64,000 nucleotides of DNA from an uncultured Pseudomonadales bacterium (lineage in GTDB: Bacteria > Patescibacteriota > Microgenomatia > UBA1400 > MFAQ01). The stretch lies in NCBI GenBank assembly GCA_964348455.1, contig CAYGCQ010000001.1, positions 58,450-122,449 on the forward strand, given 5' to 3'. Shown piece by piece: positions 729 to 24,239 of the stretch. How positions within the stretch are numbered: position 1 is the first letter of the stretch; every line of letters starts with the position of its first letter. The notes under the pieces are model-generated. The model made no database searches. It saw only the letters and a list, made by a program, of their open reading frames with translations, and had not been told where the DNA came from. The translations under genes were made by a program, and so were the position numbers.

Positions 729-741
729 ATTAAAAAATAAA

Positions 742-1305
742 ATGGGCCTGATAAAAATAAAACATAAATCTATCGCCCTGCCCAAAAACACAAAACTCTA
801 TCGTCAAACTTACGGAAAAGTTGAAGGAATCCAAGGTGTTTATGTTTTAAAGACAAGCGTCTTTGCTGATGATTATGGCGGTTGGTTCAAAGAGGCAATG
901 CGTCTGGATGCAAGTGGTAATGTAGTAGCTCTCAAAGAATTAGGTGTCAATTTCCATCCTATTCAAGTCAATACCTCATTCTTAGCTCCAAAAACCAAAA
1001 GATTCTGGCACATTCATCCAAAGCAGAATGAAATCTGGACCACGAGCGGCACCATTCTCATGGGATTAATTGATTACCGACCGGAGTCAATTTCCTATCG
1101 AACAAAGATGAAAGTGATTCTCTCCTCCGATAAGCAAATATATATTCCCGCCGGAGTGGCCCATGGCTTTATAAATCCAAATCTAAAATCCGTAACCTTA
1201 AATTACTTTACAGATCACTATTTTGTAGCCAACAAATTCACCCAGGAATGTCGTATAGATCCAAAAATTATTTCTTATGACTTCGTTCTGCCGGAAAAAA
1301 TGTAA
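742..1305 (+). CDS. rfbC: dTDP-4-dehydrorhamnose 3,5-epimerase-like cupin (RmlC family)
   Basis: ~187 aa cupin with GVYVLKTSVFADDYGGWFKEAMR and AHGFINP motifs resembling RmlC. It follows rfbB directly. Start chosen at the ATG at 742 in the ORF frame. Confidence 0.6.
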   Translation: MGLIKIKHKSIALPKNTKLYRQTYGKVEGIQGVYVLKTSVFADDYGGWFKEAMRLDASGNVVALKELGVNFHPIQVNTSFLAPKTKRFWHIHPKQNEIWTTSGTILMGLIDYRPESISYRTKMKVILSSDKQIYIPAGVAHGFINPNLKSVTLNYFTDHYFVANKFTQECRIDPKIISYDFVLPEKM

Positions 1306-1312
1306 CACATCC

Positions 1313-1386
1313 GTCATTGCGAGGAGTGAAGCGACGCGGCAATCTATAATATCAATTGTCATTCCCGACCTGATCGGGAATCTATA
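1313..1386 (+). repeat. two adjacent hairpin repeats (type C 1313-1348; canonical 29-mer 1358-1386) between rfbC and the rmlD-like gene
   Basis: gtcattgcgaggagtgaagcgacgcggcaatctata, then gtcattcccgacctgatcgggaatctata, 15 nt before ATG 1401. Confidence 0.9.
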
Positions 1387-1400
1387 AAAATAAATTCAAT

Positions 1401-2321
1401 ATGTCCAAAGAAAAAATACTCATCACCGGTGCCAGTGGTTTAGTTGGCTCTCGTTTTGTGGAAAAGTACGTCGACAATTTTCAATTAATAACTCCTGAAT
1501 ACCCAGACTTCGACTTAACAAGGTTGGAGGATGTTCGAAAAATAATTGAAAAAGAAAATCCCGACTGGATCATAAACTTCGCAGCTTTTACAGACGTAAA
1601 TTCTGCTGAGGCACAGTTTGGTGATGAGTCAGGTTCGGCATGGAAAATAAATGTTGAAGGTACAGAAAATTTACAAAAAACATTTTTATCCAAGAATTTT
1701 ATTCAAATTTCTACCGATATGGTTTTCCCTGGTGACCTTAGTCAGCCAGGTCCATATTCCGAGACCGATATTCCTCCAGATTCAAGCGACAAACTCACTT
1801 GGTATGGCTGGACAAAAAACCGGGCAGAAAAACTAGTTCTTTCTCAGGGTGGCACAGTGCTTAGAATTATTTATCCGGTTAGAGAAAAATTTAATTTAAA
1901 GCTAGATTACATCAGAGGTGCTCTAAAAAAATTCGCGGAAGGAAAGATGTATCCTCTCTTTGATGATCAACAGATTTGTATTTCATACATCGATGAAGTC
2001 GCCGACACTTTATCCAAAATTATCGAGACTGATTCTCATGGTGTTTTTCATTGTTCTTCCGACACTACTACTCCCTACGAATTAATTTCCTATGTCGTTG
2101 ATCAGCTGGGCGAAGACGCCTCTCTTGTTAAGTCAGCTTCTATTAACGAATTTCTAAAGTCACAAGCAAACCCAAATCGTTACCCGGTTTGGGGAGGGTT
2201 AAGAACCGTCATCACCGAAGAGGCTTTGGAAATGCATTTCTCAACCTGGCAAACAGTAGTTGAGTATCTCATCGGTCAAGGTCTAAGTTTGCCGAAAGTT
2301 GAGAGTAGTGGTCAAAATTAA
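1401..2321 (+). CDS. rfbD: NAD(P)-dependent sugar reductase/epimerase, dTDP-4-dehydrorhamnose reductase-like (RmlD family)
   Basis: N-terminal Rossmann motif ILITGASGLVGS, ~300 aa, third gene of an rml-like cluster. The start codon lies 15 nt downstream of a hairpin repeat. Confidence 0.6.
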   Translation: MSKEKILITGASGLVGSRFVEKYVDNFQLITPEYPDFDLTRLEDVRKIIEKENPDWIINFAAFTDVNSAEAQFGDESGSAWKINVEGTENLQKTFLSKNFIQISTDMVFPGDLSQPGPYSETDIPPDSSDKLTWYGWTKNRAEKLVLSQGGTVLRIIYPVREKFNLKLDYIRGALKKFAEGKMYPLFDDQQICISYIDEVADTLSKIIETDSHGVFHCSSDTTTPYELISYVVDQLGEDASLVKSASINEFLKSQANPNRYPVWGGLRTVITEEALEMHFSTWQTVVEYLIGQGLSLPKVESSGQN

Positions 2322-2340
2322 TCGTATATACTATTTACAG

Positions 2341-3222
2341 ATGACTTCACCAATTGCCATATCTGGGAAAGCGGGTCGATGGTCCCCGAAGGGGGAGATC
2401 CACACCCATATAACTACTCCATCTGTCATTCCCGACTTGATCGGGAATCTATTTAAATTAACTCTACTTTCTCTATTTATTATTCTTGCCGGAATTTTCT
2501 CCCCCTTTGTTTTCGCGGATGCCAAATCAGACTATGATTACCAGTATGGTCAATACCGCACTAGCTACGCCGAGTTCTCTCTTTTAAAACAGGATTATCT
2601 AAACACTCCTAGTTTGGACAATCAACAGAAAGTTATGATTTCAGCCAAACAAACCATTCTTAGTAGAGACTTGGCCAAAGCCTCCCTTGACTGGTATTTG
2701 CTTGATCTAATCAACCATTACCGTGTCGATTACGAGCCAATCAAACCAATCATTGCTGCTTTAAATACATCTAGGCAATATTTTTTAAATGAATCATTTA
2801 AGTCCCAGGGAATAGTGACAGAAACTGATTTAAAAAAATTCACCGAGAGTTATCTCGAAACTGTTCCGCTGCACGATGCCATGATGAAGTTTGGGATTCT
2901 GGCAAACAAGATTGCTGAGCTGGTAAGAATTCAAATAGACTCACAAACTGCTTTAGAAACAATTATTCCGAAGCTTCCTTCACCTATGCCTCAGAACTTA
3001 ACAGATAGAGTCCAGGAGTTACGCGACAAAACCAAGTTTATTGATTCCAAAATAGATATTTTTGCCAATAACCTTCCCATAGCTGATGCTGTTGTCGAGT
3101 CAGCCAACGATATTTTCTTTACATCTCGAGTCGAGCTTTTAGCCGAGATTCGCCTTCTCCAACTAGACTGGATTAATCGCCTTATAGATCTAGATATAAA
3201 CTATGTCCAACCCCAAATTTGA
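2341..3222 (+). CDS. hypothetical secreted/membrane-anchored protein; N-terminal region is built from two repeat copies
   Basis: ORF has a hydrophobic segment LTLLSLFIILAGIFSPFVFA after a repeat-derived stretch (GRWSPKGEIH...VIPDLIGNLFK). True start uncertain. Confidence 0.4.
   Translation: MTSPIAISGKAGRWSPKGEIHTHITTPSVIPDLIGNLFKLTLLSLFIILAGIFSPFVFADAKSDYDYQYGQYRTSYAEFSLLKQDYLNTPSLDNQQKVMISAKQTILSRDLAKASLDWYLLDLINHYRVDYEPIKPIIAALNTSRQYFLNESFKSQGIVTETDLKKFTESYLETVPLHDAMMKFGILANKIAELVRIQIDSQTALETIIPKLPSPMPQNLTDRVQELRDKTKFIDSKIDIFANNLPIADAVVESANDIFFTSRVELLAEIRLLQLDWINRLIDLDINYVQPQI
2356..2452 (+). repeat. long GGTCCCCGAAGGGGGA-containing unit (about 2356-2405) plus canonical variant 2425-2452 (loop cttga)
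   Basis: Both lie just after rmlD-like stop, overlapping the N-terminus of ORF 2341. Confidence 0.85.
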
Positions 3223-3568
3223 AATAACTAATCCTGAGGCTATCAAACTTATTGATAATATTAAGAGTGGAGTTTTTTTCACTCCTGTTAAAGTTTGGGC
3301 TATCAAATACAAATGGTTCCTGGTAACCGGAGCTGTTATTATCGTACTTTTGATTGCTCTTGCTATTGGTAAAGCAATCTCTGCTAGCCGCCAGGCACCG
3401 GTGTTTCTTCCTCCCGATATCGGTACCCCTGTTCCTACCACCACTACGACAGTTAAGTCTGACTATCAATGGATACGACAAAATATTCTGAATTACAGTA
3501 CAGACCTTCCGGACCCTGTTCTTCCAGTTTTGGATAATACAATAAATCTCGAAAGTGCTAATATATAA
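3203..3568 (+). CDS. hypothetical single-pass membrane protein with Pro/Thr-rich linker
   Basis: 121-aa ORF with one TM helix (WFLVTGAVIIVLLIALAIG) and a PVPTTTTT linker. Confidence 0.45.
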   Translation: MSNPKFEITNPEAIKLIDNIKSGVFFTPVKVWAIKYKWFLVTGAVIIVLLIALAIGKAISASRQAPVFLPPDIGTPVPTTTTTVKSDYQWIRQNILNYSTDLPDPVLPVLDNTINLESANI

Positions 3569-3571
3569 CTT

Positions 3572-4306
3572 ATGGCTAAAACACCTACCAAAAAAACAAT
3601 TAACAAAGTAAAACCAACCATGGCAGAAAAAAAGACAAAGTCAAAAAAATCCGTGAAGTCCATTAAAAATTTGAGAACTCCGGTCGAAGAAACATTTCCT
3701 GAAATGACAGAAATGAAGAAGTCACCCTTTAGTTTTATTGTCAAACTAGTTCTCATTGTTGCGCTTGGTTCCGCACTATATCTTTTGGCACAGAAATACA
3801 GGGGTCTAATTCTAGCTGGTACGGTTGATTCTTCGCCTATCAGTAGGTCAGAATTAAATAAAAAGATGGTTGAGAAGTACGGTGCTCAAACATTAGATGA
3901 AATCATTAATGAAAGAATACTGGAAGGTCAATTGAAGAAAAACAACATAAGTATTTCTGACCAGGAAGTCAACGACGAAATGGCTAAAGTTATCAAAGAC
4001 TACGGTGGTGAGGAGGCCTTTAAGTCAGCCCTATCTCAGTACGGGTTAACAGAAGACAAAGCCAAAGACTCCATCAAACAAAGTCTTGGGCTAAAGAAGT
4101 TGGTTGAAATGAACTACAAGGTTGAGATAACCGCTGATCAAATCAAAAAGTATTTTGACGACAACAAAACTCAATTTACTGACAAGAAATTGGAAGAAGT
4201 TTCAGACAGTATCAAAGACACCTTGTATCAGCAAGAGATATATGCCAAGACACAAGAGTGGTTTACCGGAGTCCGAAAAGCCGCAAAGGTCGTCACCTTT
4301 ATCTAA
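3572..4306 (+). CDS. membrane-anchored SurA-N-terminal-domain-like chaperone
   Basis: Lys-rich N-terminus, one TM helix, then a region (SRSELNKKMVEKYGAQTLDEIINERILEGQ...KSALSQYGLTEDKAKDSIKQSL) resembling SurA_N/PpiD-type domains. Confidence 0.5.
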   Translation: MAKTPTKKTINKVKPTMAEKKTKSKKSVKSIKNLRTPVEETFPEMTEMKKSPFSFIVKLVLIVALGSALYLLAQKYRGLILAGTVDSSPISRSELNKKMVEKYGAQTLDEIINERILEGQLKKNNISISDQEVNDEMAKVIKDYGGEEAFKSALSQYGLTEDKAKDSIKQSLGLKKLVEMNYKVEITADQIKKYFDDNKTQFTDKKLEEVSDSIKDTLYQQEIYAKTQEWFTGVRKAAKVVTFI

Positions 4307-4312
4307 AGAACT

Positions 4313-5116
4313 GTGAAAAAAACTGCCCAAGAAAAACAAGCAAAGAAAGCAAAATTCGAGTTCGTCCCTAAGCGCTGGATTGTTCCGGCGCTTACGGCTG
4401 TTATGGTGTTGATTCTTATTATCAATGCCATTGTTTTTAACAGTAGATCGACTAACAATGTTGACCCGGAGCAGTCAGCATCACCATCTGCCATTATAAA
4501 CGCCGATAATATTTCTCTCCCGAACCCTGACTTTAAAAGCAGTAGCTCTATCGAAAGCGTCTTACGGTCCAGACGGACCAGAAGAGCCTTCCAGGACACT
4601 CAGTTATCGTTGAAGCAGGTTTCTCAGATGCTTTGGGCTGCCCAGGGGATCACCGTCGACTGGGGTGGTCGGACAGCGCCATCAGCCAAGTCTACTTACC
4701 CTTTATCCATATTTTTAATAGCGAACGATGTTGCCGGTCTTGAACCGGGTGAGTACCAATACATTTCGGGTGACAGAACTCCCGTCCATCAGCTTAAACC
4801 ACTTAAACAGGTAGAGTTGCAAAAATCTATTTTTGAAGCTTTAAATGAATCATCTTTTCAGCACGCTCCTGCGGTATTGATTATTACCGGAAGTATGGGG
4901 AAGATGGCAGAAGCCTATGGAGGCATTCCTCACGACAAAGAAGTCTACTTGGAAGCCGGACACGCCGCTCAAAATCTATACCTTCAGGCCGAAAGTCTGA
5001 AGCTTGGCATGGTAACCATCACAGGTTTTGACGCAGATAAAATTCTTGGGTTGGTGACAATTCCGGATACCGATACTATAATCTACCTAATTCCTTTCGG
5101 AATCCCAAAACTATAA
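4313..5116 (+). CDS. SagB-type dehydrogenase / nitroreductase-family protein with N-terminal TM anchor
   Basis: Motifs RRTRRAF, MLWAAQGIT, PSAKSTYPL, LEPGEYQY and AGHAAQNLYLQAESLKLGMVTITGF match nitroreductase/SagB-like folds. Confidence 0.6.
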   Translation: MKKTAQEKQAKKAKFEFVPKRWIVPALTAVMVLILIINAIVFNSRSTNNVDPEQSASPSAIINADNISLPNPDFKSSSSIESVLRSRRTRRAFQDTQLSLKQVSQMLWAAQGITVDWGGRTAPSAKSTYPLSIFLIANDVAGLEPGEYQYISGDRTPVHQLKPLKQVELQKSIFEALNESSFQHAPAVLIITGSMGKMAEAYGGIPHDKEVYLEAGHAAQNLYLQAESLKLGMVTITGFDADKILGLVTIPDTDTIIYLIPFGIPKL

Positions 5117-5126
5117 ATTTCATTTT

Positions 5127-5387
5127 ATGACAGAAAAATGGACACCAGATGTTAATGAGCGTATTCGTCGTGAGACATATATTGCTGATCTGAAAGCAGG
5201 AGATCCAGAAAAGTACGAATCATTGCTGGCAGAATGCGATACGTTTAAGAAGTTCGAGACTGAGCAACAAATTCAAGCCGCAAAAACTATGATTGAGGAT
5301 GCGGTAGCGCTTGACGCTGAAGAAGCATACGAGATTATGTTATCAAGAAGGACAGAACCAACAAACGATCAATATCAAAACTTCTAA
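5127..5387 (+). CDS. hypothetical small acidic protein
   Basis: 86-aa ORF with no recognisable motif. Codon usage resembles neighbouring genes. Confidence 0.4.
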   Translation: MTEKWTPDVNERIRRETYIADLKAGDPEKYESLLAECDTFKKFETEQQIQAAKTMIEDAVALDAEEAYEIMLSRRTEPTNDQYQNF

Positions 5388-5410
5388 GTTAATAAATATT
5401 TATAATAAAT

Positions 5411-5596
5411 ATGGCCGAAAAAGAACACCAATCTTCAATGTTTAATATAGATCCGGGAGGTAATGAAACAGTAAGGCCTAAAGGAATATTGAAAAAATTT
5501 AAAAAAGAAAAGAAAATTAAGCCGGCAAAAGAAAAGAAGCAAAAACCCGATCCGTCAGATCGGTGGAGTTGGACAAATCAGGGTGACGAAAAATAG
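5411..5596 (+). CDS. hypothetical small Lys-rich protein
   Basis: 61-aa ORF, low complexity. Could be non-coding. Confidence 0.25.
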   Translation: MAEKEHQSSMFNIDPGGNETVRPKGILKKFKKEKKIKPAKEKKQKPDPSDRWSWTNQGDEK

Positions 5597-5649
5597 CTAT
5601 TTTATCTTTCCCTACTATCTTTTCTTCCCCACACCACCACCACCACATT

Positions 5650-5944
5650 GTCATTCCGGGTCGTAGAGTCGCCTTGGGAGACCTTGACCCGGAATCCAGC
5701 CCCACACCACCCACTCATTAATTTGTCATCCCCGCGAAGATGGACCACTGGCACCCGAGGGGATAGATCCACAATCACTCACCACCTCACCAGTCATTGC
5801 GAGTTTCGGTACCCGATCCCAGAGTCGCCTCAGGAGACACCGAAGCAACCTCACACCACCTCACCACACCGTCTCACCACCCACTCATTAATTTGTCATC
5901 CTCTTCGCACTCCTTGTCATTCCCGACCTGATCGGGAATCTATA
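5650..5944 (+). repeat. intergenic array of 5 heterogeneous hairpin-repeat units separated by CA-rich (caccac) spacers
   Basis: Units: GTCATTCCGGGtcgtagagtcgccttgggagaccttgACCCGGAATCC (5650-5697); GTCATCCCCGCGAAGatggaccactggcacccgaggggatagatcca (5725-5771); GTCATTGCGAGTTTCGGT...ACCGAAGCAACCTCAC (5793-5854); a degenerate unit; then the canonical 29-mer (5916-5944). Confidence 0.9.
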
Positions 5945-6345
5945 TAGATAAAGTACAATTTAATTGTGAAGAGATATTATGTGTATATTCTCGCAAGTTA
6001 TAAAAATGGTACGCTGTATATAGGTGTAACAGGAAATTTAGAAAATAGAATATCTATCCATAAAAACGATATTGTGAAGGGGTTTACAAAGAAATTTGCA
6101 GTACACAGTCTGGTTCATCTGGAGGAATTCGAGAATTCATTACAAGCTATAGCAAGAGAAAAACAACTAAAGCATTGGAAGAGAGATTGGAAAATTGAAC
6201 TCATTGAAAAATCAAATCCAGATTGGAATGATATATCTGATGAATTTCTCTAAAAAAAGTTGAACCCGTTTTTATAGATTCCCGATCAGGTCGGGAATGA
6301 CGATTGAAATATTCCACATATTTTTACTCCGTGATTCGCAATGAC
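5916..6345 (+). mobile_element. ~430 bp micro-element: GIY-YIG nuclease gene flanked by perfect 29-bp terminal inverted repeats (copy 1)
   Basis: Left end gtcattcccgacctgatcgggaatctata (5916-5944) is the exact reverse complement of tatagattcccgatcaggtcgggaatgac (6273-6301). A second partial inverted unit gtgattcgcaatgac lies at 6331-6345. The whole unit is duplicated identically at 9253-9682. Confidence 0.7.
5966..6253 (+). CDS. GIY-YIG nuclease superfamily protein (UPF0213/YhbQ-like), 95 aa
   Basis: YVYILASYKNGTLYIGVTGNLENRISIHKND matches the GIY-(x10)-YIG core with the conserved R and H/N that follow. Identical to the ORF at 9303-9590. Confidence 0.8.
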   Translation: MKRYYVYILASYKNGTLYIGVTGNLENRISIHKNDIVKGFTKKFAVHSLVHLEEFENSLQAIAREKQLKHWKRDWKIELIEKSNPDWNDISDEFL

Positions 6346-6350
6346 AACAA

Positions 6351-6980
6351 TTACTTCCTTTTCCTCCACTTCTCAATTTCCTTATGATTTCCGGAGAGCA
6401 GTACATCCGGCACCTTCCAGCCATTGTACTCAGCCGGTCTGGTGTACTGCGGGTACTCCACGGCCATATCTTCGCTGTAAGACTCTTCTTTAAGAGATTC
6501 CGGATTCCCCAGAACCCCGGGCATTAGTCGACAAATACTGTCCACAGCCACCATTACCGGAAGCTCACCACCGCTTAGGACGTAGGGGCCGATACTATAT
6601 ATCTCATCTGCCAAATGTTCGTGGACGCGGTGATCAATACCCTCAAAGTGCGGGGCAATAAAGATCAAATGCTCTTCTGTTTTCAGTTTTTCGGCACTTT
6701 TCTGGTCATACATTTTTCCCTTTGTATCCATCAAAATTACTTTAGTATTTTCAGTCTTGAGTTCTTTGATGGCTCGATCCACCACATCTATTTTCATCAC
6801 CATGCCGGCACCTCCACCAAAAGGGTGACCATCCACACTTTTGTAGTTATCATCACTCCAGTCCCGTAAATTTCGGACATTGATTTGTACAGCCTCGGTT
6901 CCCACAGCCCGGCCAATCATGGAAGTCTTAAAAACACCTTCGAACATCTCTGGGAATATCGTCAAAATATCAATCTTCAT
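6351..6980 (-). CDS. trmD: tRNA (guanine37-N1)-methyltransferase
   Basis: MKIDILTIFPEMF...HPFGGGAGMVMKIDVVDRAI...IYSIGPYVLSGGELPVMVAVDSICRLMPGVLGNPESL is a full-length TrmD with SPOUT knot motifs. Confidence 0.9.
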   Translation of the reverse strand: MKIDILTIFPEMFEGVFKTSMIGRAVGTEAVQINVRNLRDWSDDNYKSVDGHPFGGGAGMVMKIDVVDRAIKELKTENTKVILMDTKGKMYDQKSAEKLKTEEHLIFIAPHFEGIDHRVHEHLADEIYSIGPYVLSGGELPVMVAVDSICRLMPGVLGNPESLKEESYSEDMAVEYPQYTRPAEYNGWKVPDVLLSGNHKEIEKWRKRK

Positions 6981-6994
6981 TATGATAAATTTGG

Positions 6995-7501
6995 CTAAAG
7001 ATCTATTATCGTGGGTGCGTAACCCTTAGTGAAAAAGATATGAGTCTTTTGATCAGTGCCATTATCCACTTTAACCGTGCAAGTTTCATCGCTTGTTTCC
7101 AGACTTGTAACCTGATATTCCTGATTAGCCTTGATTATATCCGGTTTACCATTGTAAGAGATTCTACCATTTTTAAGGATGGTCAGAATATTGATATTGC
7201 CTGTATCTGGATCTGTATTAGTATAATACTCTTTAGTCTCTGCATCTGGATTTAACTCTCTTTTCCAGCCATCTCTAGGAATATGGCCGAGTACATACCC
7301 CATGGGAAATGCGAATTCGCTCCCATCCATACCAGGATAACCATTGTATCTTTTTCGTATCCCATCCAATAAATTCAACACACTCTCATTATCATGAGAT
7401 GTCTCCACTTCACTTTTGCTTCTATCTGAGGAATTTGTTTCCATATACTGATAATACACCTTCCATTCAATTAGGAGAATATGGCTATATAATATCCTCA
7501 T
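6995..7501 (-). CDS. hypothetical protein
   Basis: 168-aa ORF with no recognisable domain. An internal M (METNSSD) is an alternative start that would leave a short divergent intergenic spacer. Confidence 0.45.
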   Translation of the reverse strand: MRILYSHILLIEWKVYYQYMETNSSDRSKSEVETSHDNESVLNLLDGIRKRYNGYPGMDGSEFAFPMGYVLGHIPRDGWKRELNPDAETKEYYTNTDPDTGNINILTILKNGRISYNGKPDIIKANQEYQVTSLETSDETCTVKVDNGTDQKTHIFFTKGYAPTIIDL

Positions 7502-7823
7502 GCCCAGACTTGTAAAGAAAACCGCTCACGCCCCCATGAAAGTGGGAGATAAATATATTTGCATGTGTGGTCTATCCAAAGACCAGCCATTTTGCGACAA
7601 ATCGCATCTTAAGACCCTCAAGGAGGACGAAACCAAACTTTACTGGTACGAGAACGGTAAAGCCGAAGAAATCGTGACCGAACCCGGGGAGTGTGATTGT
7701 GAAGAATGCAAGGAAGAGAAAAACTGTTGTTCAGACAGGGAGTGTCAATGTGACGGATTGTCTTCTGACGAGAGTACCGGGGACTGTTCCGGAGAAAATT
7801 GCTGTGGCCGTTGCAAAAAATAA
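7500..7823 (+). CDS. CDGSH-type iron-sulfur domain protein with Cys-rich C-terminal tail
   Basis: CMCGLSKDQPFCDKSH matches the C-x-C-x2-S-x3-P-x-CDGSH signature. The tail has many Cys pairs (CDCEEC, CCSDRECQC, CCGRC). Confidence 0.6.
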   Translation: MPRLVKKTAHAPMKVGDKYICMCGLSKDQPFCDKSHLKTLKEDETKLYWYENGKAEEIVTEPGECDCEECKEEKNCCSDRECQCDGLSSDESTGDCSGENCCGRCKK

Positions 7824-7828
7824 TATTT

Positions 7829-9010
7829 ATGAAAAAACTTCCCATCGCAGTCATCGTCATCCCCACTTACAACGAAGCTGCTTCTATCGGGAAGATGATA
7901 GATCACCTCTTTACAGTTACTTTTCCAATCATCAAGAACTGGGATTGTAAAGTTTTAGTAGTTGACGACACATCTCCCGATGGCACCTACAAGGTAGTTC
8001 AAGAAAAGCAAAAGAAGTTCAAAAATTTATTTTTATCCCTTAGTGCCAAGAAGGCCGGTATTGGCGGCGCCTATGTCCGAGGATTCCGCTACGCCATGAA
8101 AGAGCTACATGCCGACGTGGTCATTGAGATGGATGGAGACTTCCAGCATCCTCCTCGACTAGTAAACAATTTACTGAAAGCCATTGACGACGGTTACGAC
8201 TACGTCATGGGTTCCAGAAAAATAAAAGGTGGCAGCAATCCGAAAGGTTGGGGGTTCAAGAGAGTTTTCTTTAGTGAAGTTGGCGGTATGGTCGCTCGCT
8301 TTGTATTATTCTTCCCCACCAAAAATTACTTCCGCATTACAGATCCTACCGGTGGTTTCAAGGCTTCACGAGTTAAAGGTTTTGTAGACACCATTGACAT
8401 GGATCATCTTTATTCCAGAAGTTTTGGGTACAAGTTGGAGTTTCTCTACAAAATGGTTCTGTTGGGAGCCAAGGTAAAAGAAATACCATTACAGTTCAAT
8501 GTTAGAAATGCCGGAGAATCCAAGATAGAGCCTCAGACAGCTAAAGAGATTTTCAAAACAGTTTTTCTGCTTCGGTGGAACGATTCAACTACTCAAAAAT
8601 TTATTAAATTTGGATGCATCGGACTTTTCGGTTTTGCCATTAACAAAATCGGCCTCGACGTCTTTGCTAAACTTCTGGGCAACGTAATCAGTGTAATAGG
8701 AGTTCGTAATACCGTCGCCAACGCCCTCGCCGCCGAGGTTTCTATTATCAGTAACTTTGTTTTTAACAATCTCTGGACCTTCAAGAATGAAAAACTTGTT
8801 TGGGGGTCCAAGTTAATCAAAAAGTTTACTACTTTCAATCTCAGTTCCGTAGTCTCCGGTATCATCATCCCTAGTTTGGTAATCGGTCTTGGCACTCAGA
8901 CTTTTGGTGATCAGTACCGCACCCTTTTCTTAGTCATTGCTGTCTTCCTCATTACTGTACCGCTAAACTGGTTCATCTACAACGTATTTATTTGGAAGAA
9001 GAATAAGTAA
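7829..9010 (+). CDS. GT2 polyprenyl-phosphate sugar synthase (DPM1-like) fused to C-terminal GtrA-like 4-TM domain
   Basis: AVIVIPTYNEAASI, VVDDTSPDGT and IEMDGDFQHPP are GT2 DxD-family motifs. The C-terminus FIKFGCIGLFGFAINKIGLD...NLWTF resembles GtrA-family domains. Start taken at MKKLPIAV. Confidence 0.75.
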   Translation: MKKLPIAVIVIPTYNEAASIGKMIDHLFTVTFPIIKNWDCKVLVVDDTSPDGTYKVVQEKQKKFKNLFLSLSAKKAGIGGAYVRGFRYAMKELHADVVIEMDGDFQHPPRLVNNLLKAIDDGYDYVMGSRKIKGGSNPKGWGFKRVFFSEVGGMVARFVLFFPTKNYFRITDPTGGFKASRVKGFVDTIDMDHLYSRSFGYKLEFLYKMVLLGAKVKEIPLQFNVRNAGESKIEPQTAKEIFKTVFLLRWNDSTTQKFIKFGCIGLFGFAINKIGLDVFAKLLGNVISVIGVRNTVANALAAEVSIISNFVFNNLWTFKNEKLVWGSKLIKKFTTFNLSSVVSGIIIPSLVIGLGTQTFGDQYRTLFLVIAVFLITVPLNWFIYNVFIWKKNK

Positions 9011-9016
9011 AAACCC

Positions 9017-9281
9017 GTCATTGCGAGTTTCGGTACCCGATCCCAGAGTCGCCTCTGGAGAGACCGTAGCAACCTCACACCTTTCACCACACCACCCACC
9101 ACACCACCCGTCATTGCGAGTTTCGGTACTACGAACCGAAGCAATCTCCGCTATTACACCACTCCACGAATGTCATCCTCGCGAAAGCGGGCCGATAGTA
9201 CCCGAATGGGTAGATCCACAAACACCACACAACACATCCTCAAAACACCCCAGTCATTCCCGACCTGATCGGGAATCTATA
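9017..9281 (+). repeat. intergenic array of 4 hairpin-repeat units with CA-rich spacers, ending in the left TIR of GIY-YIG element copy 2
   Basis: Units at 9017-9078 (GTCATTGCGAGTTTCGGT...long loop...AACCTCAC), 9110-9149 (GTCATTGCGAGTTTCGGTactacgaACCGAAGCAATCTCC), 9172-9219 (GTCATCCTCGCGAAAGCGGGccgatagtacccgaatgggtagatcca) and 9253-9281 (canonical 29-mer). Confidence 0.9.
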
Positions 9282-9682
9282 TAGATAAAGTACAATTTAA
9301 TTGTGAAGAGATATTATGTGTATATTCTCGCAAGTTATAAAAATGGTACGCTGTATATAGGTGTAACAGGAAATTTAGAAAATAGAATATCTATCCATAA
9401 AAACGATATTGTGAAGGGGTTTACAAAGAAATTTGCAGTACACAGTCTGGTTCATCTGGAGGAATTCGAGAATTCATTACAAGCTATAGCAAGAGAAAAA
9501 CAACTAAAGCATTGGAAGAGAGATTGGAAAATTGAACTCATTGAAAAATCAAATCCAGATTGGAATGATATATCTGATGAATTTCTCTAAAAAAAGTTGA
9601 ACCCGTTTTTATAGATTCCCGATCAGGTCGGGAATGACGATTGAAATATTCCACATATTTTTACTCCGTGATTCGCAATGAC
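9253..9682 (+). mobile_element. GIY-YIG micro-element copy 2, identical to 5916-6345
   Basis: Same 29-bp TIRs (9253-9281 and 9610-9638), same internal sequence and ORF, same gtgattcgcaatgac end (9668-9682). Flanking sequence diverges immediately outside. Confidence 0.7.
9303..9590 (+). CDS. GIY-YIG nuclease superfamily protein, identical second copy
   Basis: 95-aa translation identical to 5966-6253. Confidence 0.8.
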   Translation: MKRYYVYILASYKNGTLYIGVTGNLENRISIHKNDIVKGFTKKFAVHSLVHLEEFENSLQAIAREKQLKHWKRDWKIELIEKSNPDWNDISDEFL

Positions 9683-9691
9683 GCAAATTTT

Positions 9692-9723
9692 GAGTTTTAG
9701 AGTTTTTGAGTTTTAGAGTTTTT
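9692..9723. repeat. direct tandem repeat (gagttttagagttttt) x2 at the 3' end of the minus-strand gene
   Basis: Two adjacent 16-nt units. A related motif ttttagagttttagattttttgagttttt occurs at 61747-61779. Confidence 0.8.
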
Positions 9724-10838
9724 TACAAATATGGAGCCCAATCCGCTATTGGTGCAGTGTTGTTTAAAAGGAAATTCCACGTAAATAAGAAAATTGGGAC
9801 TATTAGCAAAGCTGCAATTACTTTAAACTCTTTTTTTTGAGCAAGTTTATCCCAGCCAATAAGTACAAATGGAGCTATCGGCAATATGTATCTACTGATA
9901 TCTCGGTGAGCTACAAAAAGAGTGGATAAGAAAAACAGTCCAGCAAAATAGTATTCAACATCCAGTTTTTTCTCTTTAAGCTTCATGACTCCGATTCCAA
10001 AAATCAACCATGTCCAGATAATATCTTCGAGCCAAAAATTTCCCACCCAAACTTGACCTTTGGGTGCAAACACACTAAATGGTGGCCAGAATAAATGCAT
10101 ATTATCTCCGCTGTGCAAATAAGCCCAGAAATCACCGGTTCGAATATTAAAGAACTGGAACAATCCAAAAATTGCAACCACTTGAATTAATAACGGCCAG
10201 TACTTCCATTGAATTTTCTCCTCTTTGACTGATTGAACTAACGCAAATATTCCATACGCAGCAAGTAGAATAATTGCCGGACTTTTGGTCAGTTGGGCTA
10301 ACGCACCAAATACACCTGCCCAAACATATCTTCCTTTTTTGAAGTAAAAAAGGCTGGCAATGATAAAAAGCATAAACCATGGCTCAGGTGAACCAATCCC
10401 TCTTAGTGCCAACCATCTTGCCGGAAGAATCATAAAAACTATTGTTAGCCAAAACGGGTTAACGCTCAGTTTAAACTCGCTAAGGTACTTGTAAAACATT
10501 AAGAAGCACAGAATGGTTCCGAGTAAAGTGGCAAGTAGCATCGCCGTCGGCCCTTTCAAGAAAGGATCAAACATCGATATAACTGCAGGGTAAAGTGGGA
10601 AGTGTGCTGCAAAATACTCCGCTGTTTCTGTCGTCGAGAATGCAGTCTTTATGTGTTCTCTGTCATACCATGTTTTTTCAACTATTAGGTAGTTTGGACC
10701 ATCATAATTCTGCCAAAGAATCTTTGTTCCTTCAGAAAAATCAAGATTCCACCCGGGAAGATTGCTTTTTAGGACAAAAGGTGCCCAAACAATCAAGGTA
10801 AATAAAATAGTAATTAACACTAAATAAGCTCGTTTCAT
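9723..10838 (-). CDS. polytopic membrane protein, GPI-mannosyltransferase-2 (PIG-V)-like GT-C family candidate
   Basis: About 9 predicted TM helices. The N-terminal loop WQNYDGPNYLIVEKTWYD...FPLYPAVI resembles the W-DG-WY...GY...FFPLYP signature of Mannosyl_trans2-type proteins. Paralogous to 55861-56994. Confidence 0.5.
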   Translation of the reverse strand: MKRAYLVLITILFTLIVWAPFVLKSNLPGWNLDFSEGTKILWQNYDGPNYLIVEKTWYDREHIKTAFSTTETAEYFAAHFPLYPAVISMFDPFLKGPTAMLLATLLGTILCFLMFYKYLSEFKLSVNPFWLTIVFMILPARWLALRGIGSPEPWFMLFIIASLFYFKKGRYVWAGVFGALAQLTKSPAIILLAAYGIFALVQSVKEEKIQWKYWPLLIQVVAIFGLFQFFNIRTGDFWAYLHSGDNMHLFWPPFSVFAPKGQVWVGNFWLEDIIWTWLIFGIGVMKLKEKKLDVEYYFAGLFFLSTLFVAHRDISRYILPIAPFVLIGWDKLAQKKEFKVIAALLIVPIFLFTWNFLLNNTAPIADWAPYL

Positions 10839-10857
10839 CTACCTCTAGTATATACTT

Positions 10858-11574
10858 GTGAGTATGTCGAGACAAATAGATAAACTATCCGTATTCTTAC
10901 CGGCTTACAACGAGGAGGCAAATCTTGATAAAACAGTCAGAAATGTTGTAGAAAACCTCAAAAAAAATGTTTCCACCTGGGAGCTAATCATTGTTAACGA
11001 TGGCTCCAAAGACAAGACCGGTGAAATTGCCGATCGATGGAGCAAGAAAGACAAGAGGGTTACCGCCATTCACCACAATCCAAATCGAGGTTACGGGGCC
11101 GCCTTAAAGAGTGGCTTATATGCTTGTAAATATCCCTGGATCTCCTTTATCGACTCCGACGGCCAGTTCGATTTCAGAGAGATAAATCGTTTTATGGATA
11201 CTCAAGAAAAAACCGGTGCCGACATGGTCATAGGTTACTATCTTGGTAGAAAAGTTTCCTTCACTAGAAAATTAAATACTTTTATGTGGCAAGTAATTGT
11301 CCGAATCTTATTCGGTTTGAATGTCAGAGACATCGACTGTGGCTTCAAATTAATTTCCAAGAGAGTTGTGGACAAAATCGAACCGTTACAAAGTGAGAGG
11401 GGAGCCTTTATTAGCAGTGAATTCTTAATTAAAGCCAAAAAAGCCAGGTTCAAAATAGTGGAGATTGGTGTTCAGCACTTTCCCAGAAAACAGGGTGAGG
11501 GCACGGGGGCCAATCTAGACGTCATCATTCAGAGTTTTGTTGATCTCTTCAAGCTATGGTACAAGCTGAAGTAA
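10858..11574 (+). CDS. GT2 glycosyltransferase, DPM1-like polyprenyl-phosphate sugar synthase
   Basis: LSVFLPAYNEEANL, IIVNDGSKDKT, FIDSDGQFD, HHNPNRGYGAA and GFKLISKRV motifs. Confidence 0.75.
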   Translation: MSMSRQIDKLSVFLPAYNEEANLDKTVRNVVENLKKNVSTWELIIVNDGSKDKTGEIADRWSKKDKRVTAIHHNPNRGYGAALKSGLYACKYPWISFIDSDGQFDFREINRFMDTQEKTGADMVIGYYLGRKVSFTRKLNTFMWQVIVRILFGLNVRDIDCGFKLISKRVVDKIEPLQSERGAFISSEFLIKAKKARFKIVEIGVQHFPRKQGEGTGANLDVIIQSFVDLFKLWYKLK

Positions 11575-11576
11575 CC

Positions 11577-11826
11577 GTCATCCCCGATCCAGGAGTCGCT
11601 TGGGAGACCCTGATCGGGGATCAATATAATTAAAATACTCTGTCATCCTCGCGAACGCGGGGATTCACAGAAACAAAAAAACAACACCATGTCATTCCAG
11701 CGAAGGCGGGCCGCTGGTCCCCGGAGGGGGAAATCCATCAAATAAAACAAATGATAAAAAACCCAAAAATCTTTATTAAAAAATAATAAATAACATTGTC
11801 ATTCCCGACCTGATCGGGAATCTATA
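11577..11826 (+). repeat. intergenic array of 4 hairpin-repeat variants ending in the canonical 29-mer directly upstream of the next start codon
   Basis: Units at 11577-11632 (GTCATCCCCGATCcaggagtcgcttgggagaccctGATCGGGGATC), 11642-11670 (GTCATCCTCGCGAACGCGGGGATTC), 11691-11740 (long GTCATTCCAGCGAAGGCGGGccgctggtccccggagggggaaatcca) and 11798-11826 (canonical). The ATG follows at 11830. Confidence 0.9.
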
Positions 11827-11829
11827 CAA

Positions 11830-13326
11830 ATGAACTCAATAATAAATTTTATAAAAAAGAACAAATCCGAGTCTATATTGCTTGGAGCAGTCCTCCTTCT
11901 TGCACTTGTACTTCGCGTCTATCGTATCGAAGATTTTATGACCTTTCTTGGTGACGAGGGTCGTGATGTCCGCATTGTTCGCGATTTAATTACTCAAGGC
12001 AACTTAGTCTTTATCGGTCCGCAAACCAGTATTGGAAACATGTATCTAGGACCTCTTTATTACTACATGATGGCCCCTGCACTTCTCCTTTCCGGTCTCA
12101 ACCCCGTTGGACCAGCCATTATGGTTGCTCTACTGGGAACACTGACAATCTGGCTGACTTGGTTCGTCGGTAGAAACTGGTTTGGCAAACAGGCTGCATT
12201 TATCGCTGCGCTGCTTTTTGCAGTCTCTCCGGTCGCCATTATTTACTCCCGCTCTTCATGGAATCCTAACCCGATGCCTTTTTTCGCTCTTCTGTGTATC
12301 TGGGGAATCTATGAAGTCTGGCAGAATAAAAAATATATTTGGCTTCCCTATACCAGCATCTCTTTTGCCTTTGCTCTTCAGATGCACTATCTGGGGTTAC
12401 TTTTGATTCCTACCCTAGGCCTGTTCTGGCTTTTTACTCTCATATCCATTAATAAAGCCAAAGACATAAGGTCTAGAAGGATTTTTCTACGATATTCTCT
12501 TTTTGGGTTTTTGATTTTTTTATTACTGATGTCTCCACTTTTGCTGTTCGACACAAAACACAACTGGATGAACTTTAATGCTTTCAAGTCATTTTTCTCA
12601 GATCGTCAGACAACTGTAAATCTAAACCCCGCCAGGTCAGATAGATTTCTTCCTGTCATGCTTATGACCATTTCAGACATGGTTTTAGCTCGCCAAGAGT
12701 ACTTTGCTCCCATAACCTTAGCACTCACTCTTCTGCTGTCAGGCTGGGTTTATTTTAAGTCCAAGTGGCAGACTCCTCTAAAGGTATTATTTGTTTGGCT
12801 CGGTCTAGCTATCCTTGGTCTTAGTGTCTATAAGCAACATGTCTACATTCACTATCTCGGATTTATCTACCCAGCCATCTACCTTCTCATTGGGGCGATT
12901 TTAGGATTCATGTTACAACGGAAAGTAGTCTTAAAAATTATTTCAGCTTCTCTGGTACTCTTTCTCTTTTTCTACAGTCTGGTTTACAGTCCGGTAAGAG
13001 AAACTCCAAATCGTCAACTTTGGCGCACAGAAGCGGCCGTAGATCTCATTATTAAGGAGTCGGGTGGCCAGCCGTTCAACTTTGGCTTACTTGCAAAACA
13101 AAACTATGATGAGTCCTATCGTTATTTTTTGGAGAACAAAAAAGCCAATTCTTTTAGAGCTGAAGATAAGGTAACGAATCAGATGTTTGTCATCTGTGAA
13201 GACGGTGATGCTTGTAGCCCGGAAGGAAGTCCTGCGTATCAAATAGCCAAGTTTGGACAAGCTCATGTAGTGGGCACATGGAATGTTGACTATCTGAAAA
13301 TTTATCGTTTAGCACATTTCAAATGA
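11830..13326 (+). CDS. GT-C fold membrane glycosyltransferase, ArnT/PMT-like (subfamily with GDEGRD loop motif)
   Basis: More than 10 TM helices. The first periplasmic loop RIEDFMTFLGDEGRDVRIVRD carries the DE motif. Paralogous to 27145-28878 and the N-terminal half of 37686-38273. Confidence 0.65.
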   Translation: MNSIINFIKKNKSESILLGAVLLLALVLRVYRIEDFMTFLGDEGRDVRIVRDLITQGNLVFIGPQTSIGNMYLGPLYYYMMAPALLLSGLNPVGPAIMVALLGTLTIWLTWFVGRNWFGKQAAFIAALLFAVSPVAIIYSRSSWNPNPMPFFALLCIWGIYEVWQNKKYIWLPYTSISFAFALQMHYLGLLLIPTLGLFWLFTLISINKAKDIRSRRIFLRYSLFGFLIFLLLMSPLLLFDTKHNWMNFNAFKSFFSDRQTTVNLNPARSDRFLPVMLMTISDMVLARQEYFAPITLALTLLLSGWVYFKSKWQTPLKVLFVWLGLAILGLSVYKQHVYIHYLGFIYPAIYLLIGAILGFMLQRKVVLKIISASLVLFLFFYSLVYSPVRETPNRQLWRTEAAVDLIIKESGGQPFNFGLLAKQNYDESYRYFLENKKANSFRAEDKVTNQMFVICEDGDACSPEGSPAYQIAKFGQAHVVGTWNVDYLKIYRLAHFK

Positions 13327-13868
13327 GTTCCACAACTCTCACCTCACCTTTAATCTGGCTAGATCTCGAGTTCACCGACCTTGATGTCAAGAAAGGTGTC
13401 ATCGTTGAGATAGCTACTGTTGTTACCGATGGTAACCTAAACATTATCGGTACCGGACCTGATATCGTCATCAACCAGCCGGAGTCTATTCTGACCAAGA
13501 TGGTGAAGTGGAATCAAGAACATTTTGGTGAGTCCGGTTTACTACAAGAAATCAGAAATTCCAAAGTAACCACAGCCGAAGCCGAAGAAGAAACCTTAAA
13601 TTTTCTGAAAAAACACTGTGCCCCACATACAGCACTCTTGGCTGGATCGTCCGTCTACATGGACCGAGAATTTTTGAGACTTTATATGCCCCGCTTATAC
13701 GACTTCGTACATTACCGGATTATAGACACCAATACCCTAAAAGAACTGATGCATCGCTGGTACCCAAGCATCCCGAACTATCCGAAAGTGGAGCCTCATA
13801 GAGCTAAGGGCGATATTCTTGAGTCCATAGATGAGTTAAAATACTACCAGTCACACTTATTTAAATAA
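13323..13868 (+). CDS. orn: oligoribonuclease (DEDDh 3'-5' exoribonuclease)
   Basis: LIWLDLEFTDLDVKKGVIVEIATVVTD, YMDREFL and the C-terminal HRAKGDILESIDEL match Orn exo motifs I-III. 181 aa. Confidence 0.85.
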   Translation: MSSTTLTSPLIWLDLEFTDLDVKKGVIVEIATVVTDGNLNIIGTGPDIVINQPESILTKMVKWNQEHFGESGLLQEIRNSKVTTAEAEEETLNFLKKHCAPHTALLAGSSVYMDREFLRLYMPRLYDFVHYRIIDTNTLKELMHRWYPSIPNYPKVEPHRAKGDILESIDELKYYQSHLFK

Positions 13869-13875
13869 TATTCTT

Positions 13876-13901
13876 GTCATTCCGGGCTTGACCCGGAATC
13901 C
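13876..13901 (+). repeat. hairpin repeat, type B (GTCATTCCGGGCTTGACCCGGAATCC), 10 nt upstream of ATG 13912
   Basis: Stem CCGGG/CCCGG, loop cttga. Intergenic between orn and a GT2 gene. Confidence 0.9.
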
Positions 13902-13911
13902 AGAAACTCAA

Positions 13912-14673
13912 ATGTCTCCAAAACTATCAATAGTCCTCAGTAACTATAACGAGCTTGCAAACCTAGAAAGGGGAGTGCTTGAGGAAATGTATTCTTATCT
14001 TAAGAAAGTAAAATTCACCTGGGAAGTTATCATTAACGATGATGGTTCTTCCGATGGCGGTGACAAGATTATAGGAAATTTTGTAAAGAAGCACTCCGGG
14101 TTCAAAATGATAAAGGGAAGTCATGGAGGTAAAGCTGCCGGTATTTGGAATGGTATCCAGGCCGCCAACGGTGAAGTGGTTCTCTATACCGACATGGATC
14201 AATCGACTCCATTAAAAGAATGCGAGAAACTCCTTCCTTGGTTTGATAAAGGCTACGACGTTGTCTTTGGTTCTAGAGGAAAGATGCGCAACAACTTTTC
14301 TCCCATTCGCCAGGTATCCTCATGGTCCTTCAGAACTTTCAGGGGATTTCTACTTCTTCATGATGTTGTCGATACTCAATGCGGCTTCAAGGCTCTCAGA
14401 ACAGACGTTGCCAAAAAAATATTTCCCATGCTTTCAGTAATCAAAAGCAACAAGACTGTAAGCAAAGGTTGGACGGTTTCTGCTTTCGATGTTGAGCTAT
14501 TATTTCTCGCCGAGAAACTTGGATACAAACTGAAAGAAGTTGATGTTATTTGGAAGAACGAAGATACTTCCACCAGCAAACAAAAGAGTTTTATTGGTGA
14601 GTCGGTGGACATGTTACAGCAAATAATTCAAGTCAAAATTAATGACCTAAAAGGTTTATATGATCAAAAATAA
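13912..14673 (+). CDS. GT2 glycosyltransferase
   Basis: LSIVLSNYNELANL, VIINDDGSSDG, YTDMDQSTP and QCGFKAL motifs. ATG start chosen. The ORF track extends upstream to a TTG inside the repeat. Confidence 0.75.
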   Translation: MSPKLSIVLSNYNELANLERGVLEEMYSYLKKVKFTWEVIINDDGSSDGGDKIIGNFVKKHSGFKMIKGSHGGKAAGIWNGIQAANGEVVLYTDMDQSTPLKECEKLLPWFDKGYDVVFGSRGKMRNNFSPIRQVSSWSFRTFRGFLLLHDVVDTQCGFKALRTDVAKKIFPMLSVIKSNKTVSKGWTVSAFDVELLFLAEKLGYKLKEVDVIWKNEDTSTSKQKSFIGESVDMLQQIIQVKINDLKGLYDQK

Positions 14674-16162: not shown

Positions 16163-16190
16163 TCGTCTTAGACATATATAATTACACTAC

Positions 16191-23939: not shown

Positions 23940-24239
23940 ATGATCACAGATCAGGAATTTTCACAACTCAGGACAATAATTAAAGAGGAAATTAATCTCG
24001 AAGTAAGAAAGGTTGTGGAAGATGTATTAGAGGAGAAGCTGGAACAGAAGCTGGAACAGAAGCTGGAACAGAAGCTAGATCAGAAACTGGACGAAAAACT
24101 CAAACCTATACATAGAAAGCTCAACAAGCTAGAAAAAGATTTGCAAGCAACAAATCACTTCTTTGATAACGAATACTTAGGTCACGAAAGAAGAATTACC
24201 AGAATCGAAACTCACCTAAATATTTCAAATCGTCTCTAA
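23940..24239 (+). CDS. hypothetical coiled-coil protein with tandem KLEQ heptad-like repeats
   Basis: EEKLEQKLEQKLEQKLDQKLDEKL is encoded by direct 12-nt DNA repeats (ctggaacagaag x3-4). Confidence 0.45.
   Translation: MITDQEFSQLRTIIKEEINLEVRKVVEDVLEEKLEQKLEQKLEQKLDQKLDEKLKPIHRKLNKLEKDLQATNHFFDNEYLGHERRITRIETHLNISNRL

Follow-up and report, generated by a model that had tools for sequence, protein, structure and literature searches.

The question raised by this locus is what the five arrays of short hairpin units are that occur in a 64-kb stretch of contig CAYGCQ010000001.1 (the whole analysed stretch, hereafter the window), and how they are related to the two GIY-YIG nuclease genes at which two of them end. 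Orthologues of a 1171-aa protein encoded in the window place it, by sequence comparison, in Candidatus Collierbacteria (Microgenomates), within the candidate phyla radiation (CPR). The arrays are very probably clusters of Ssn-related motifs (SRMs), oriented hairpin repeats of the CGTC-tagged REP (repetitive extragenic palindrome) class, and the GIY-YIG elements very probably copies of a gene (ssn) for a single-strand-specific nuclease (Ssn), in an SRM-ssn-SRM arrangement. Such a system belongs to categories already described in 2013 and 2025 (CGTC-tagged REPs, Ssn/SRM and mosaics like the NIMEs, the Neisseria intergenic mosaic elements), which an earlier note on this DNA had not recognised; therefore, it is not to be counted as a discovery, and the window provides a new CPR example of it. 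Particular to this genome are an unusually dense, unidirectional and partly intragenic motif population, an identical duplicated cassette and lineage-specific composite units.

The CGTC-tagged REPs were defined by Di Nocera 2013 (PMC3733652) as having a (C/T)GTC tag, an 8-9 bp stem starting with AT, a loop of 4-5 nt and a CCA-like tail. They include dRS3 of Neisseria (CGTC-1) and the Rickettsia repeats RPE-6 (CGTC-1) and RPE-4 (CGTC-4), and are mostly found as head-to-head dimers, clusters being rare, with "no dedicated transposase". Chenal 2025 (Nat Commun, PMC11893778) described an oriented motif, CGTCATTCCCGCGMAVGCGGGAATCYRG (NTS; more generally SRM), together with the protein that binds it, SsnA, which has 94 aa, a single GIY-YIG domain and a place in the cd10448 family. 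This enzyme cleaves only single-stranded DNA (ssDNA), only on the motif strand and a few nt 5' of the motif, being inactive on double-stranded DNA (dsDNA) and RNA. An SRM was found near 71 % of the homologues, 42 % being flanked on both sides, and the NTS copies cluster near membrane and surface-protein genes. Moreover, SsnA of N. meningitidis reduces transformation by NTS-bearing DNA, and the cutting of ssDNA beside the motif shortens recombination tracts (PMC11893778).

In the window, whose G+C content is 40 %, the units of the + strand start with (C/T/A)GTCAT, followed by a G+C-rich hairpin. A census of GTCAT[TC][CG] heads over the whole 64 kb, compared with 100 dinucleotide-preserving shuffles, gave 69 heads on the + strand (14.8 ± 4.2 in shuffles) and 12 on the − strand (11.7 ± 3.4), the latter being chance level; the densest 300-nt stretch contained 5 heads, as against 1.65 in the shuffled sequences. 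Manual curation of the units left about 57 genuine ones on the + strand and 5 on the − strand, and the motif load of the window is about one unit per kb. The short units of the + strand, 27 in number, share the head (H)GTCAT, a perfect 8-9 bp stem beginning with AT and the tail ATC(C/T)A. Their loops are of 3-5 nt (CCTGA or CTTGA, or of the GAAA/GAAG/GCAG type), the GTC of the head is unpaired, the first base 3' of the stem is C in all of them, and the tails read CCA or CTA. Five stem variants can be distinguished, namely A1 (CCCGA/TCGGG), A2 (CCGGG/CCCGG), A3 (CTGAA/TTCAG), A4 (CC(C/T)GC/GC(G/A)GG) and A5 (CCTCGC/GCGGGG). The canonical A1 29-mer is GTCATTCCCGACCTGATCGGGAATCTATA, and the dominant local variant has the form ATTCCCGA-CCTGA-TCGGGAAT. 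Tag, stem, loop, tail and intragenic copies of the CGTC-1 to CGTC-4 repeats are thus all found; the units of the window differ from them in forming head-to-tail, unidirectional arrays linked to ssn, and in their host, since the CPR phyla were outside the 2013 survey.

The pairing of the stems was assessed on units picked only by the head GTCAT and the tail ATC[CT]A at the right spacing. All six inner positions were paired in 26 of the 30 + strand units of the window selected in this way (about 0.3 % would be expected by chance per match), as well as in 149 of 164 units from 80 other genomes, and each inner stem position exhibits several Watson-Crick pair types, i.e. compensatory changes. The hairpin is under selection at the DNA level, and its pairing is no artefact of the search. 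When folded as ssDNA, the A1 29-mer reaches −7.6 kcal/mol (z = −4.1); the units of the B type, in which a 10-bp SRM stem encloses a GAGTCGCC..GGAGAC hairpin, give z = −4.0 and −3.6.

The two GIY-YIG genes are carried by cassettes of 430 bp on the + strand, at 5916-6345 and 9253-9682, which are 100 % identical over the 430 bp in pairwise alignment (blastn). As the earlier note had recognised, the hairpins serve as inverted terminal repeats of the genes: the A1 29-mer stands on the left of copy 1 (5916-5944, +) and its reverse complement on the right (6273-6301, −), copy 2 being flanked alike. The right end of the element had been taken to hold a single reverse unit; it holds two, and the duplicated block extends over the whole 430 bp. 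The second reverse unit of cassette 1, headed by GTCATTGCGA, lies at 6302-6345 (−), and the corresponding pair of cassette 2 at 9610-9638 and 9639-9682 (−). The identity between both cassettes begins at the G of the top-strand GTCAT and stops at the G of the bottom-strand unit with the GTCATTGCGA head. An independent assembly of the same genome (L081, ENA contig k141_1621037), which corresponds to window positions 6220-19590 and agrees with it at 100 % over 13.4 kb, has its end within ssn copy 1, as is expected of a true repeat; the duplicated cassette breaks short-read assemblies. This contig, which encodes a 99 % identical protein (P0001), is informative for the comparison of strains solely through its break point.

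The ssn-like genes (5966-6253 and 9303-9590, both +) are the only two copies detected in the window by tblastn, 3.3 kb apart, and encode 91-95 aa depending on the start codon. PF01541 (GIY-YIG) is the sole significant Pfam domain (residues 1-73, E = 1.1e-14); a T5orf172 match remains below threshold (E 0.0012, 19.8 bits, cut-off 20) and covers the same stretch, so that no second domain is present. In an alignment of 30 nuclease sequences, with residues numbered from V1 at 5966, Y7, Y18, R28, H32, E65 and N84 are invariant. Mutations of Y6, Y17 and E64 abolish cleavage by SsnA (Chenal 2025, PMC11893778), and the numbering of the window protein is probably offset by one from that of the N. meningitidis enzyme. 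The best relatives in a sequence search of the PDB are distant UPF0213 proteins (E = 3e-4). Homologues at 55-70 % identity number more than 7990 database entries (a lower bound), with lengths of 86-130 aa and hosts among CPR phyla, Planctomycetota, Alpha-, Beta- and Gammaproteobacteria, Chloroflexota, Cyanobacteria, Bacteroidota and others. The nuclease is filed as a putative member of the Ssn family on the grounds of architecture, domain content, catalytic residues, close homologues flanked by exact NTS-consensus matches, and size.

The linkage between gene and hairpin was also surveyed for 82 homologous GIY-YIG genes in 80 species-representative genomes. A forward GTC-headed hairpin was found at most 150 nt upstream of 54 of these genes, a reverse hairpin within about 170 nt downstream of 53, and hairpins on both sides of 45, the background rate in the same loci being 0.013 per 150 nt per strand. 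The published NTS consensus has 10 exact matches, located in 5 of the 82 loci, and genes with such matches at their flanks include homologues of 55-60 % identity from Betaproteobacteria and other groups. Each of the stem variants A1-A5 also flanks ssn-like genes in other phyla, and an exact A1 hairpin adjoins a Dehalococcoidia ssn homologue. Furthermore, the exact A1 25-mer is present in more than 120 metagenome contigs, and in four of them it directly adjoins ssn homologues that are merely 55-60 % identical to the window protein; homologues of about this identity stand beside it in L083, L096, L123 and L032, one of them from Dehalococcoidia. The A1 hairpin is more conserved than the nuclease.

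By the earlier note's own standard, its reading would have been refuted if arrays were absent elsewhere and other GIY-YIG copies were not associated with them. The opposite was observed, as both arrays and array-associated GIY-YIG genes are common in other genomes: two or more forward heads lie within 300 nt upstream of 21 of the 82 homologues, as against 1.9 % of control windows. The same is seen in the three closest relatives, which belong to the CPR. In L203 (72 % identity to the nuclease) the same cassette is preceded by two tandem A1 units; in L204 (69 %) a truncated head, a CA-rich spacer and a full unit stand in this order upstream of ssn; and in L205 (66 %, Collierbacteria) a forward and reverse doublet in tandem duplicate is followed by a single unit upstream of the gene. 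The duplicated unit of L205 (2740-3000) is of 92 nt and comprises a forward A5 and a reverse A1 hairpin, which points to array growth by doublet duplication in a related genome. Between the left hairpin and the start codon of ssn lies a leader (5945-5965 in the window) with the sequence AAAGTACAAT, including a -10-like TACAAT; this sequence is conserved in the window, L203 and L205, with the one-base variant AAAATACAAT in L204. The hairpin sits where a -35 element would be, which suggests a possible autoregulation of ssn.

The likeness to the Ssn/SRM system comprises the single-domain GIY-YIG protein of about 94 aa with inverted hairpins 5' and 3' and a spread across phyla, the CGTCAT-type head, the ATTCC...GGAAT stem and the C(C/T)A tail, and the existence of oriented copies (hundreds) clustered at envelope and surface genes. 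The window differs in its host (Collierbacteria, CPR), in the location of nearly all units on one strand, in the duplication of the ssn cassette as identical copies, in the proportion of intragenic units (about 40 %, compared with 2 % in N. meningitidis), and in that the dominant local variant narrowly fails the published pattern.

Several points weigh against this assignment. The published degenerate SRM pattern (HGTCWYN(0-2)YYVSBRHN(0-5)WNVSBRGN(0-2)RNCYNB), which was hand-built from 29 genomes (PMC11893778), matches only 3 units of the window, all of them on the + strand and none on the − strand (expected, 0.09), and the canonical 29-mer misses it by one position, having A where G is required. 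The window contains at least five stem variants but one ssn type; SsnA of N. meningitidis is sequence-specific as well as structure-specific, and therefore some of the units may not be substrates of the window enzyme. Composite units of the C, D and E types fold weakly as ssDNA (z = −0.2 to −2). Two of the composite modules, C and the B-insert, were searched for in 81 other loci beyond the window and were found in none of them beyond L081, which is the same genome; these modules are probably lineage-specific.

As to the arrays themselves, the earlier note had listed five intergenic ones, each of 4-7 co-oriented units, and all five were recovered on the + strand; more clusters exist, however, and many units lie inside genes. 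Array 1 (5650-5944, 5 GTCAT heads) consists of a B-type SRM with an extended loop (5650-5698), a C-type composite (5725-5772), a D-long unit (5793-5852), a truncated head (5895-5915) and the canonical A1 29-mer (5916-5944). Array 2 (9017-9281, 4 heads) is made up of D-long (9017-9076), D-short (9110-9149), C-type (9172-9219) and canonical A1 (9253-9281) units, with CA-rich spacers that include CACCACACCACC x2.1 at 9085-9109. Array 3 (11577-11826, 4 heads), upstream of a PMT_2 gene, contains a B-type unit (11577-11623), an A5 (11642-11668), a C-type (11691-11738) and a canonical A1 (11798-11826). Array 4 (51816-52088, 4 heads) includes C-type (51816-51863), D-long (51886-51945), A3 (51956-51984) and E-type (52030-52087) units; its first 22 nt (51816-51837, GTCATTCCTGCGCAGGAATGAC) are a perfect palindrome, which provides a GTCAT head on both strands. 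Array 5 (61321-61736, 6 heads and one headless hairpin) starts with a C' unit (61321-61367), an A3 (61375-61403), a truncated D head (61404-61438) and a C'' unit (61439-61487), and continues with the headless hairpin (about 61496-61545), a second A3 (61552-61580), E and D-long (61608-61686) and an A4 (61707-61735), the last being the sole unit of this array that matches the published SRM pattern.

The arrays are 250-420 bp long, and the spacers between their units (7-45 nt) recur as well. As had been reported, the last unit of arrays 1 and 2 is the 29-mer, which at the same time forms the left inverted repeat of the respective GIY-YIG gene. The canonical 29-mer as the usual last unit holds for arrays 1-3, arrays 4 and 5 ending in other variants, and the description of the spacers as CA-rich holds with the exception of array 3, where they are A-rich. 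Smaller clusters comprise a mini-array of two units (D-like and canonical A1; 1313-1386, +), 15 nt upstream of the start of an rmlD-like gene, a further one at 2356-2453, and an in-frame cluster of A4, A2 and B units (27631-27870, +) within the open reading frame (ORF) 27145-28878. A T-rich 8-nt periodic repeat, TTTAGAGT x4.4, is placed directly after ssn cassette 2 (9688-9722), and a similar stretch lies directly 3' of array 5 (61745-61793).

Repeats with short spacers, hairpin units and a nuclease gene between inverted repeats give these arrays a superficial likeness to a CRISPR array, an integron attC cassette array or a REP/RAYT (BIME) system, readings whose probability is practically negligible. 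CRISPR and attC arrays were rejected, as the earlier note had also concluded. The units are heterogeneous where CRISPR repeats are nearly identical, the spacers of 7-45 nt recur where CRISPR spacers are unique and of about 30 nt, and cas genes are lacking; an attC array would need gene cassettes bounded by its units and a neighbouring integrase (intI), and the window has neither. A search of the scanned window ORFs, and of the gene tables of L081 and of L082, a contig from a related species (73 % amino acid identity), revealed no transposase, integrase or cas gene; Y1_Tnp was likewise absent from the 30 ORFs scanned and from the Pfam annotation of both contigs. The likeness to REP/BIME-RAYT systems (REPtron, REPIN) goes further, including a nuclease gene between inverted copies of a dispersed hairpin, forward and reverse doublets, and the recognition of an ssDNA hairpin with an unpaired tag; the tag is, however, GTC instead of GTAG, and the enzyme a hydrolytic GIY-YIG nuclease instead of an HUH Y1 transposase.

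The composite units share parts with one another. In the C composite the 5' half of an A-type unit is fused to the module GGGCCGNTGGTACCCGAAGGGGNAGATC, D-long corresponds to D-short with a B-like insert, and E has its 3' part in common with D. These modules recur in differing order between arrays (repeat families D5, D7, D9, D12 and D19), and therefore the arrays are mosaics. They seem to resemble the NIME mosaics of Neisseria (dRS3 and RS repeats), which are likewise intergenic, with modules interleaved with dRS3/NTS-type hairpins near surface-related genes and shuffled among arrays; the differences are that the modules B, C, D and E and the CA-rich tails of the window are lineage-specific, that its arrays are shorter, and that NIME is a genus-specific name. 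The CA-rich "spacers" also occur 3' of intragenic units (e.g. 20992-21018 and 27654-27678), and one spacer is duplicated together with the next head (5706-5730 and 5876-5900); thus, the spacers act as 3' tails travelling with the units. At 5895, 50665 and 61404 a complete unit is preceded on its 5' side by a truncated head, an arrangement also observed in L018, L073 and L204.

The arrays are embedded in a large envelope-glycan locus, with rmlB- and rmlD-like genes, many GT2 and GT1/4 glycosyltransferases, YfhO, DUF2079 and a flippase, and at least eight tandem PMT_2/ArnT-like glycosyltransferase paralogues (28923-30380 and 40329-51813). About 25 of the approximately 60 units lie in frame inside ORFs, lacking stops and read in either of two stop-free frames, and encode the peptides VIPDLIGNL(YK), SHSRPDRESI and VILAKAGIH. 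The best example is the 1171-aa membrane protein (ORF 19457-22972), with three in-frame SRM clusters at 20969-21160, 21717-21822 and 22379-22470 (+). Its orthologues have about 1060 aa, some 100 fewer, and translated hairpin units in three loops apparently make up most of the difference. When 11 orthologues, from other Collierbacteria and Woesebacteria, are aligned, the same loops hold other units (A1, A2, A5, D-type and others) or none; the sequence around them is conserved and the loops themselves are variable. The alignment therefore indicates the repeated gain, loss or replacement of units at fixed hot spots. Hammerhead-like ribozymes or small introns in this ORF were considered and rejected: the ORF reads through, the orthologues differ by simple indels, and no ribozyme cores or Rfam matches were found.

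Gain and loss of units between genomes, which the earlier note had proposed to look for, is also seen outside genes: at the position of array 3, the related species (L082) carries a single unit in an intergenic region of 56 nt, and it has no ssn gene at the cassette-2 position. Three roles had been suggested for the arrays. That of landing pads fits the orthologue comparison, since the same three loops carry different units in different Collierbacteria; that of recombination hot spots would fit best of the three, by analogy with the published biology of Ssn (PMC11893778); the third, that of structured non-coding RNAs, is not supported, as discussed below.

In-frame SRMs are also present in three tandem PMT_2 paralogues (46683-50747, +), with heads at 46683, 46863, 47050, 47536, 48614, 50359, 50665 and 50719. 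In three PMT_2/ArnT-like paralogues a hairpin unit occupies one and the same loop, immediately ahead of the conserved LLAISPWH motif. At 47050-47143, in frame in the paralogue 46287-48245, a forward A2 and a reverse B-type hairpin lie 19 nt apart; the reverse member (47093-47143) is the sole genuine reverse unit outside the ssn cassettes and sits in a + gene. This doublet looks like an ssn cassette without the gene (REPIN-like). The in-frame units recall RPE-4 and RPE-6 of Rickettsia, hairpin repeats which also add short peptides in loops and leave the ORF intact; the window differs in having several units concatenated per loop and in their concentration in membrane glycosyltransferases.

With units read through in this way, it could be argued that the peptides are selected for membrane-protein function and that the intergenic arrays are decayed coding sequence, an explanation that is very improbable. 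In its favour, no intragenic unit interrupts its ORF with a stop, and arrays 1 and 2 each have one open frame. However, different genes read one DNA unit in two different frames, orthologues have no peptide or an unrelated one in the same loop, and the units occupy variable loops between conserved segments; moreover, what is conserved is the DNA hairpin, with its compensatory changes.

The orientation of the units is strongly biased, 57:5 (+:−) in the window and 18:0 in L082. Most ORFs of the window (46 of 58) are also on the + strand, and this strand is C-rich (GC skew -0.09) in both + and − genes; together with the 57:5 hairpin orientation, the skew hints at a possible replication-strand effect. 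In other low-GC genomes, units and their nearest ORFs have the same orientation in 44 cases and the opposite one in 36; the strand bias of the window is therefore local, and there is no general coupling to transcription. This bears on the idea that the hairpins act as RNA, either by stabilising mRNA, by terminating transcription, by serving as processing sites or in the form of small RNAs, as was proposed for classical REPs. In the window 57 of 62 units are co-oriented with the surrounding genes, many of them either precede a start codon by 12-50 nt or closely follow a stop codon, and the transcription of many REPs was deemed plausible by Di Nocera 2013 (PMC3733652). Against it stand the 44:36 ratio, the location of about two fifths of the units within coding sequence, and the finding that N. 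meningitidis SsnA does not bind RNA (Chenal 2025, PMC11893778). Further, Rfam gave nothing relevant on the whole window at the gathering threshold, nor on 5600-12000 at E <= 1, and a tRNA/tmRNA scan was negative. Promoter- and terminator-like sites, scanned over positions 1-14000, were at shuffle level, with none at the hairpins and no T-run after the stems. An RNA role is accordingly considered unlikely.

If the window enzyme behaves as the characterised Neisseria and Wolbachia nucleases, from which its specificity, cleavage position and biological role are taken by analogy, the following mechanism can be proposed. Whenever the + strand becomes single-stranded (in replication, recombination or incoming transforming DNA), each unit would fold into a hairpin of 8-9 bp. 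The Ssn protein of about 94 aa would bind the hairpin and the GTCAT head and nick that strand a few nt 5' of the head, leaving dsDNA, RNA and the complementary strand uncut. The motifs would in this way serve, within a hypervariable envelope locus, as strand-specific boundaries for breaks and recombination. To judge from the truncated heads, the shuffled shared modules and the gain or loss at orthologous sites, the arrays most likely grew as units were repeatedly inserted, duplicated and recombined at a resident unit or immediately 5' of it; in the loops of the envelope glycosyltransferase genes, the units would have colonised the coding sequence in frame. The identical cassettes likely derive from a recent event, their ends coinciding with predicted cut sites: the fact that the identity ends exactly at GTCAT heads on both strands is a hint at the position of the Ssn cut. 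Either transposition or SRM-bounded gene conversion would be compatible with the sequence as the event behind the duplication.

The first of these would make the SRM-ssn-SRM unit an autonomous selfish transposon, moved by its nuclease via ssDNA intermediates, single hairpins and doublets being non-autonomous derivatives similar to miniature inverted-repeat transposable elements (MITEs) or REPINs, and the arrays nested insertions. This is a real possibility, although held at clearly less than even, and it extends the Ssn/SRM explanation without excluding it. The two identical cassettes 3.3 kb apart, with their sharp limits at the heads of both strands, speak in its favour, as do the break of an independent assembly in copy 1, the gene-less doublet at 47050-47143, the complete units preceded by truncated heads in the window and in L018, L073 and L204, and the different units that orthologues hold in the same loops; moreover, the architecture NTS-ssnA-NTS was said to be one that "is identical to" insertion sequences, suggesting a domesticated element (Chenal 2025, PMC11893778). 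However, GIY-YIG enzymes cut by hydrolysis and are not known to transfer strands, a target-site duplication is not visible, and the duplication could equally result if arrays 1 and 2, which are similar, underwent gene conversion or recombined unequally. In addition, most genomes have few ssn copies, and no pair of empty and filled sites was found for the cassette.

A related and more doubtful proposal is that, in this lineage, the cassette and its single-hairpin derivatives are still mobile, Ssn nicking the exposed strand immediately 5' of a resident head and new units, each a hairpin with its CA-rich tail, being copied in at that place. Arrays would then grow unidirectionally on one replication strand, and the nesting of units would give the composites B, C and D. 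If true, the repeated in-frame hits in loops of envelope glycosyltransferases would diversify the loops of surface enzymes, and the spread of CGTC-tagged REPs, for which a dedicated transposase was lacking in the survey of Di Nocera 2013, would have its mechanism; MITE-like propagation driven by a GIY-YIG nuclease would, moreover, be a first among bacteria.

Under the Ssn/SRM reading, the value of the window is that of a natural experiment on questions of the 2025 Ssn paper, namely the role of Ssn and its motif outside Neisseria and the mobility of the IS-like (insertion sequence-like) cassette. The many in-frame insertions make gain and loss traceable across the available Collierbacteria genomes. 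For annotation, the units explain the recurrent "hypothetical" peptides VIPDLIGNLYK, SHSRPDRESI and VILAKAGIH, as well as the assembly breaks at the ssn copies. A further repeat of the locus, a coding 12-nt tandem repeat (AGAAGCTGGAAC x4.8), lies at 24034-24091, inside a 99-aa ORF (23940-24239) with no Pfam match.

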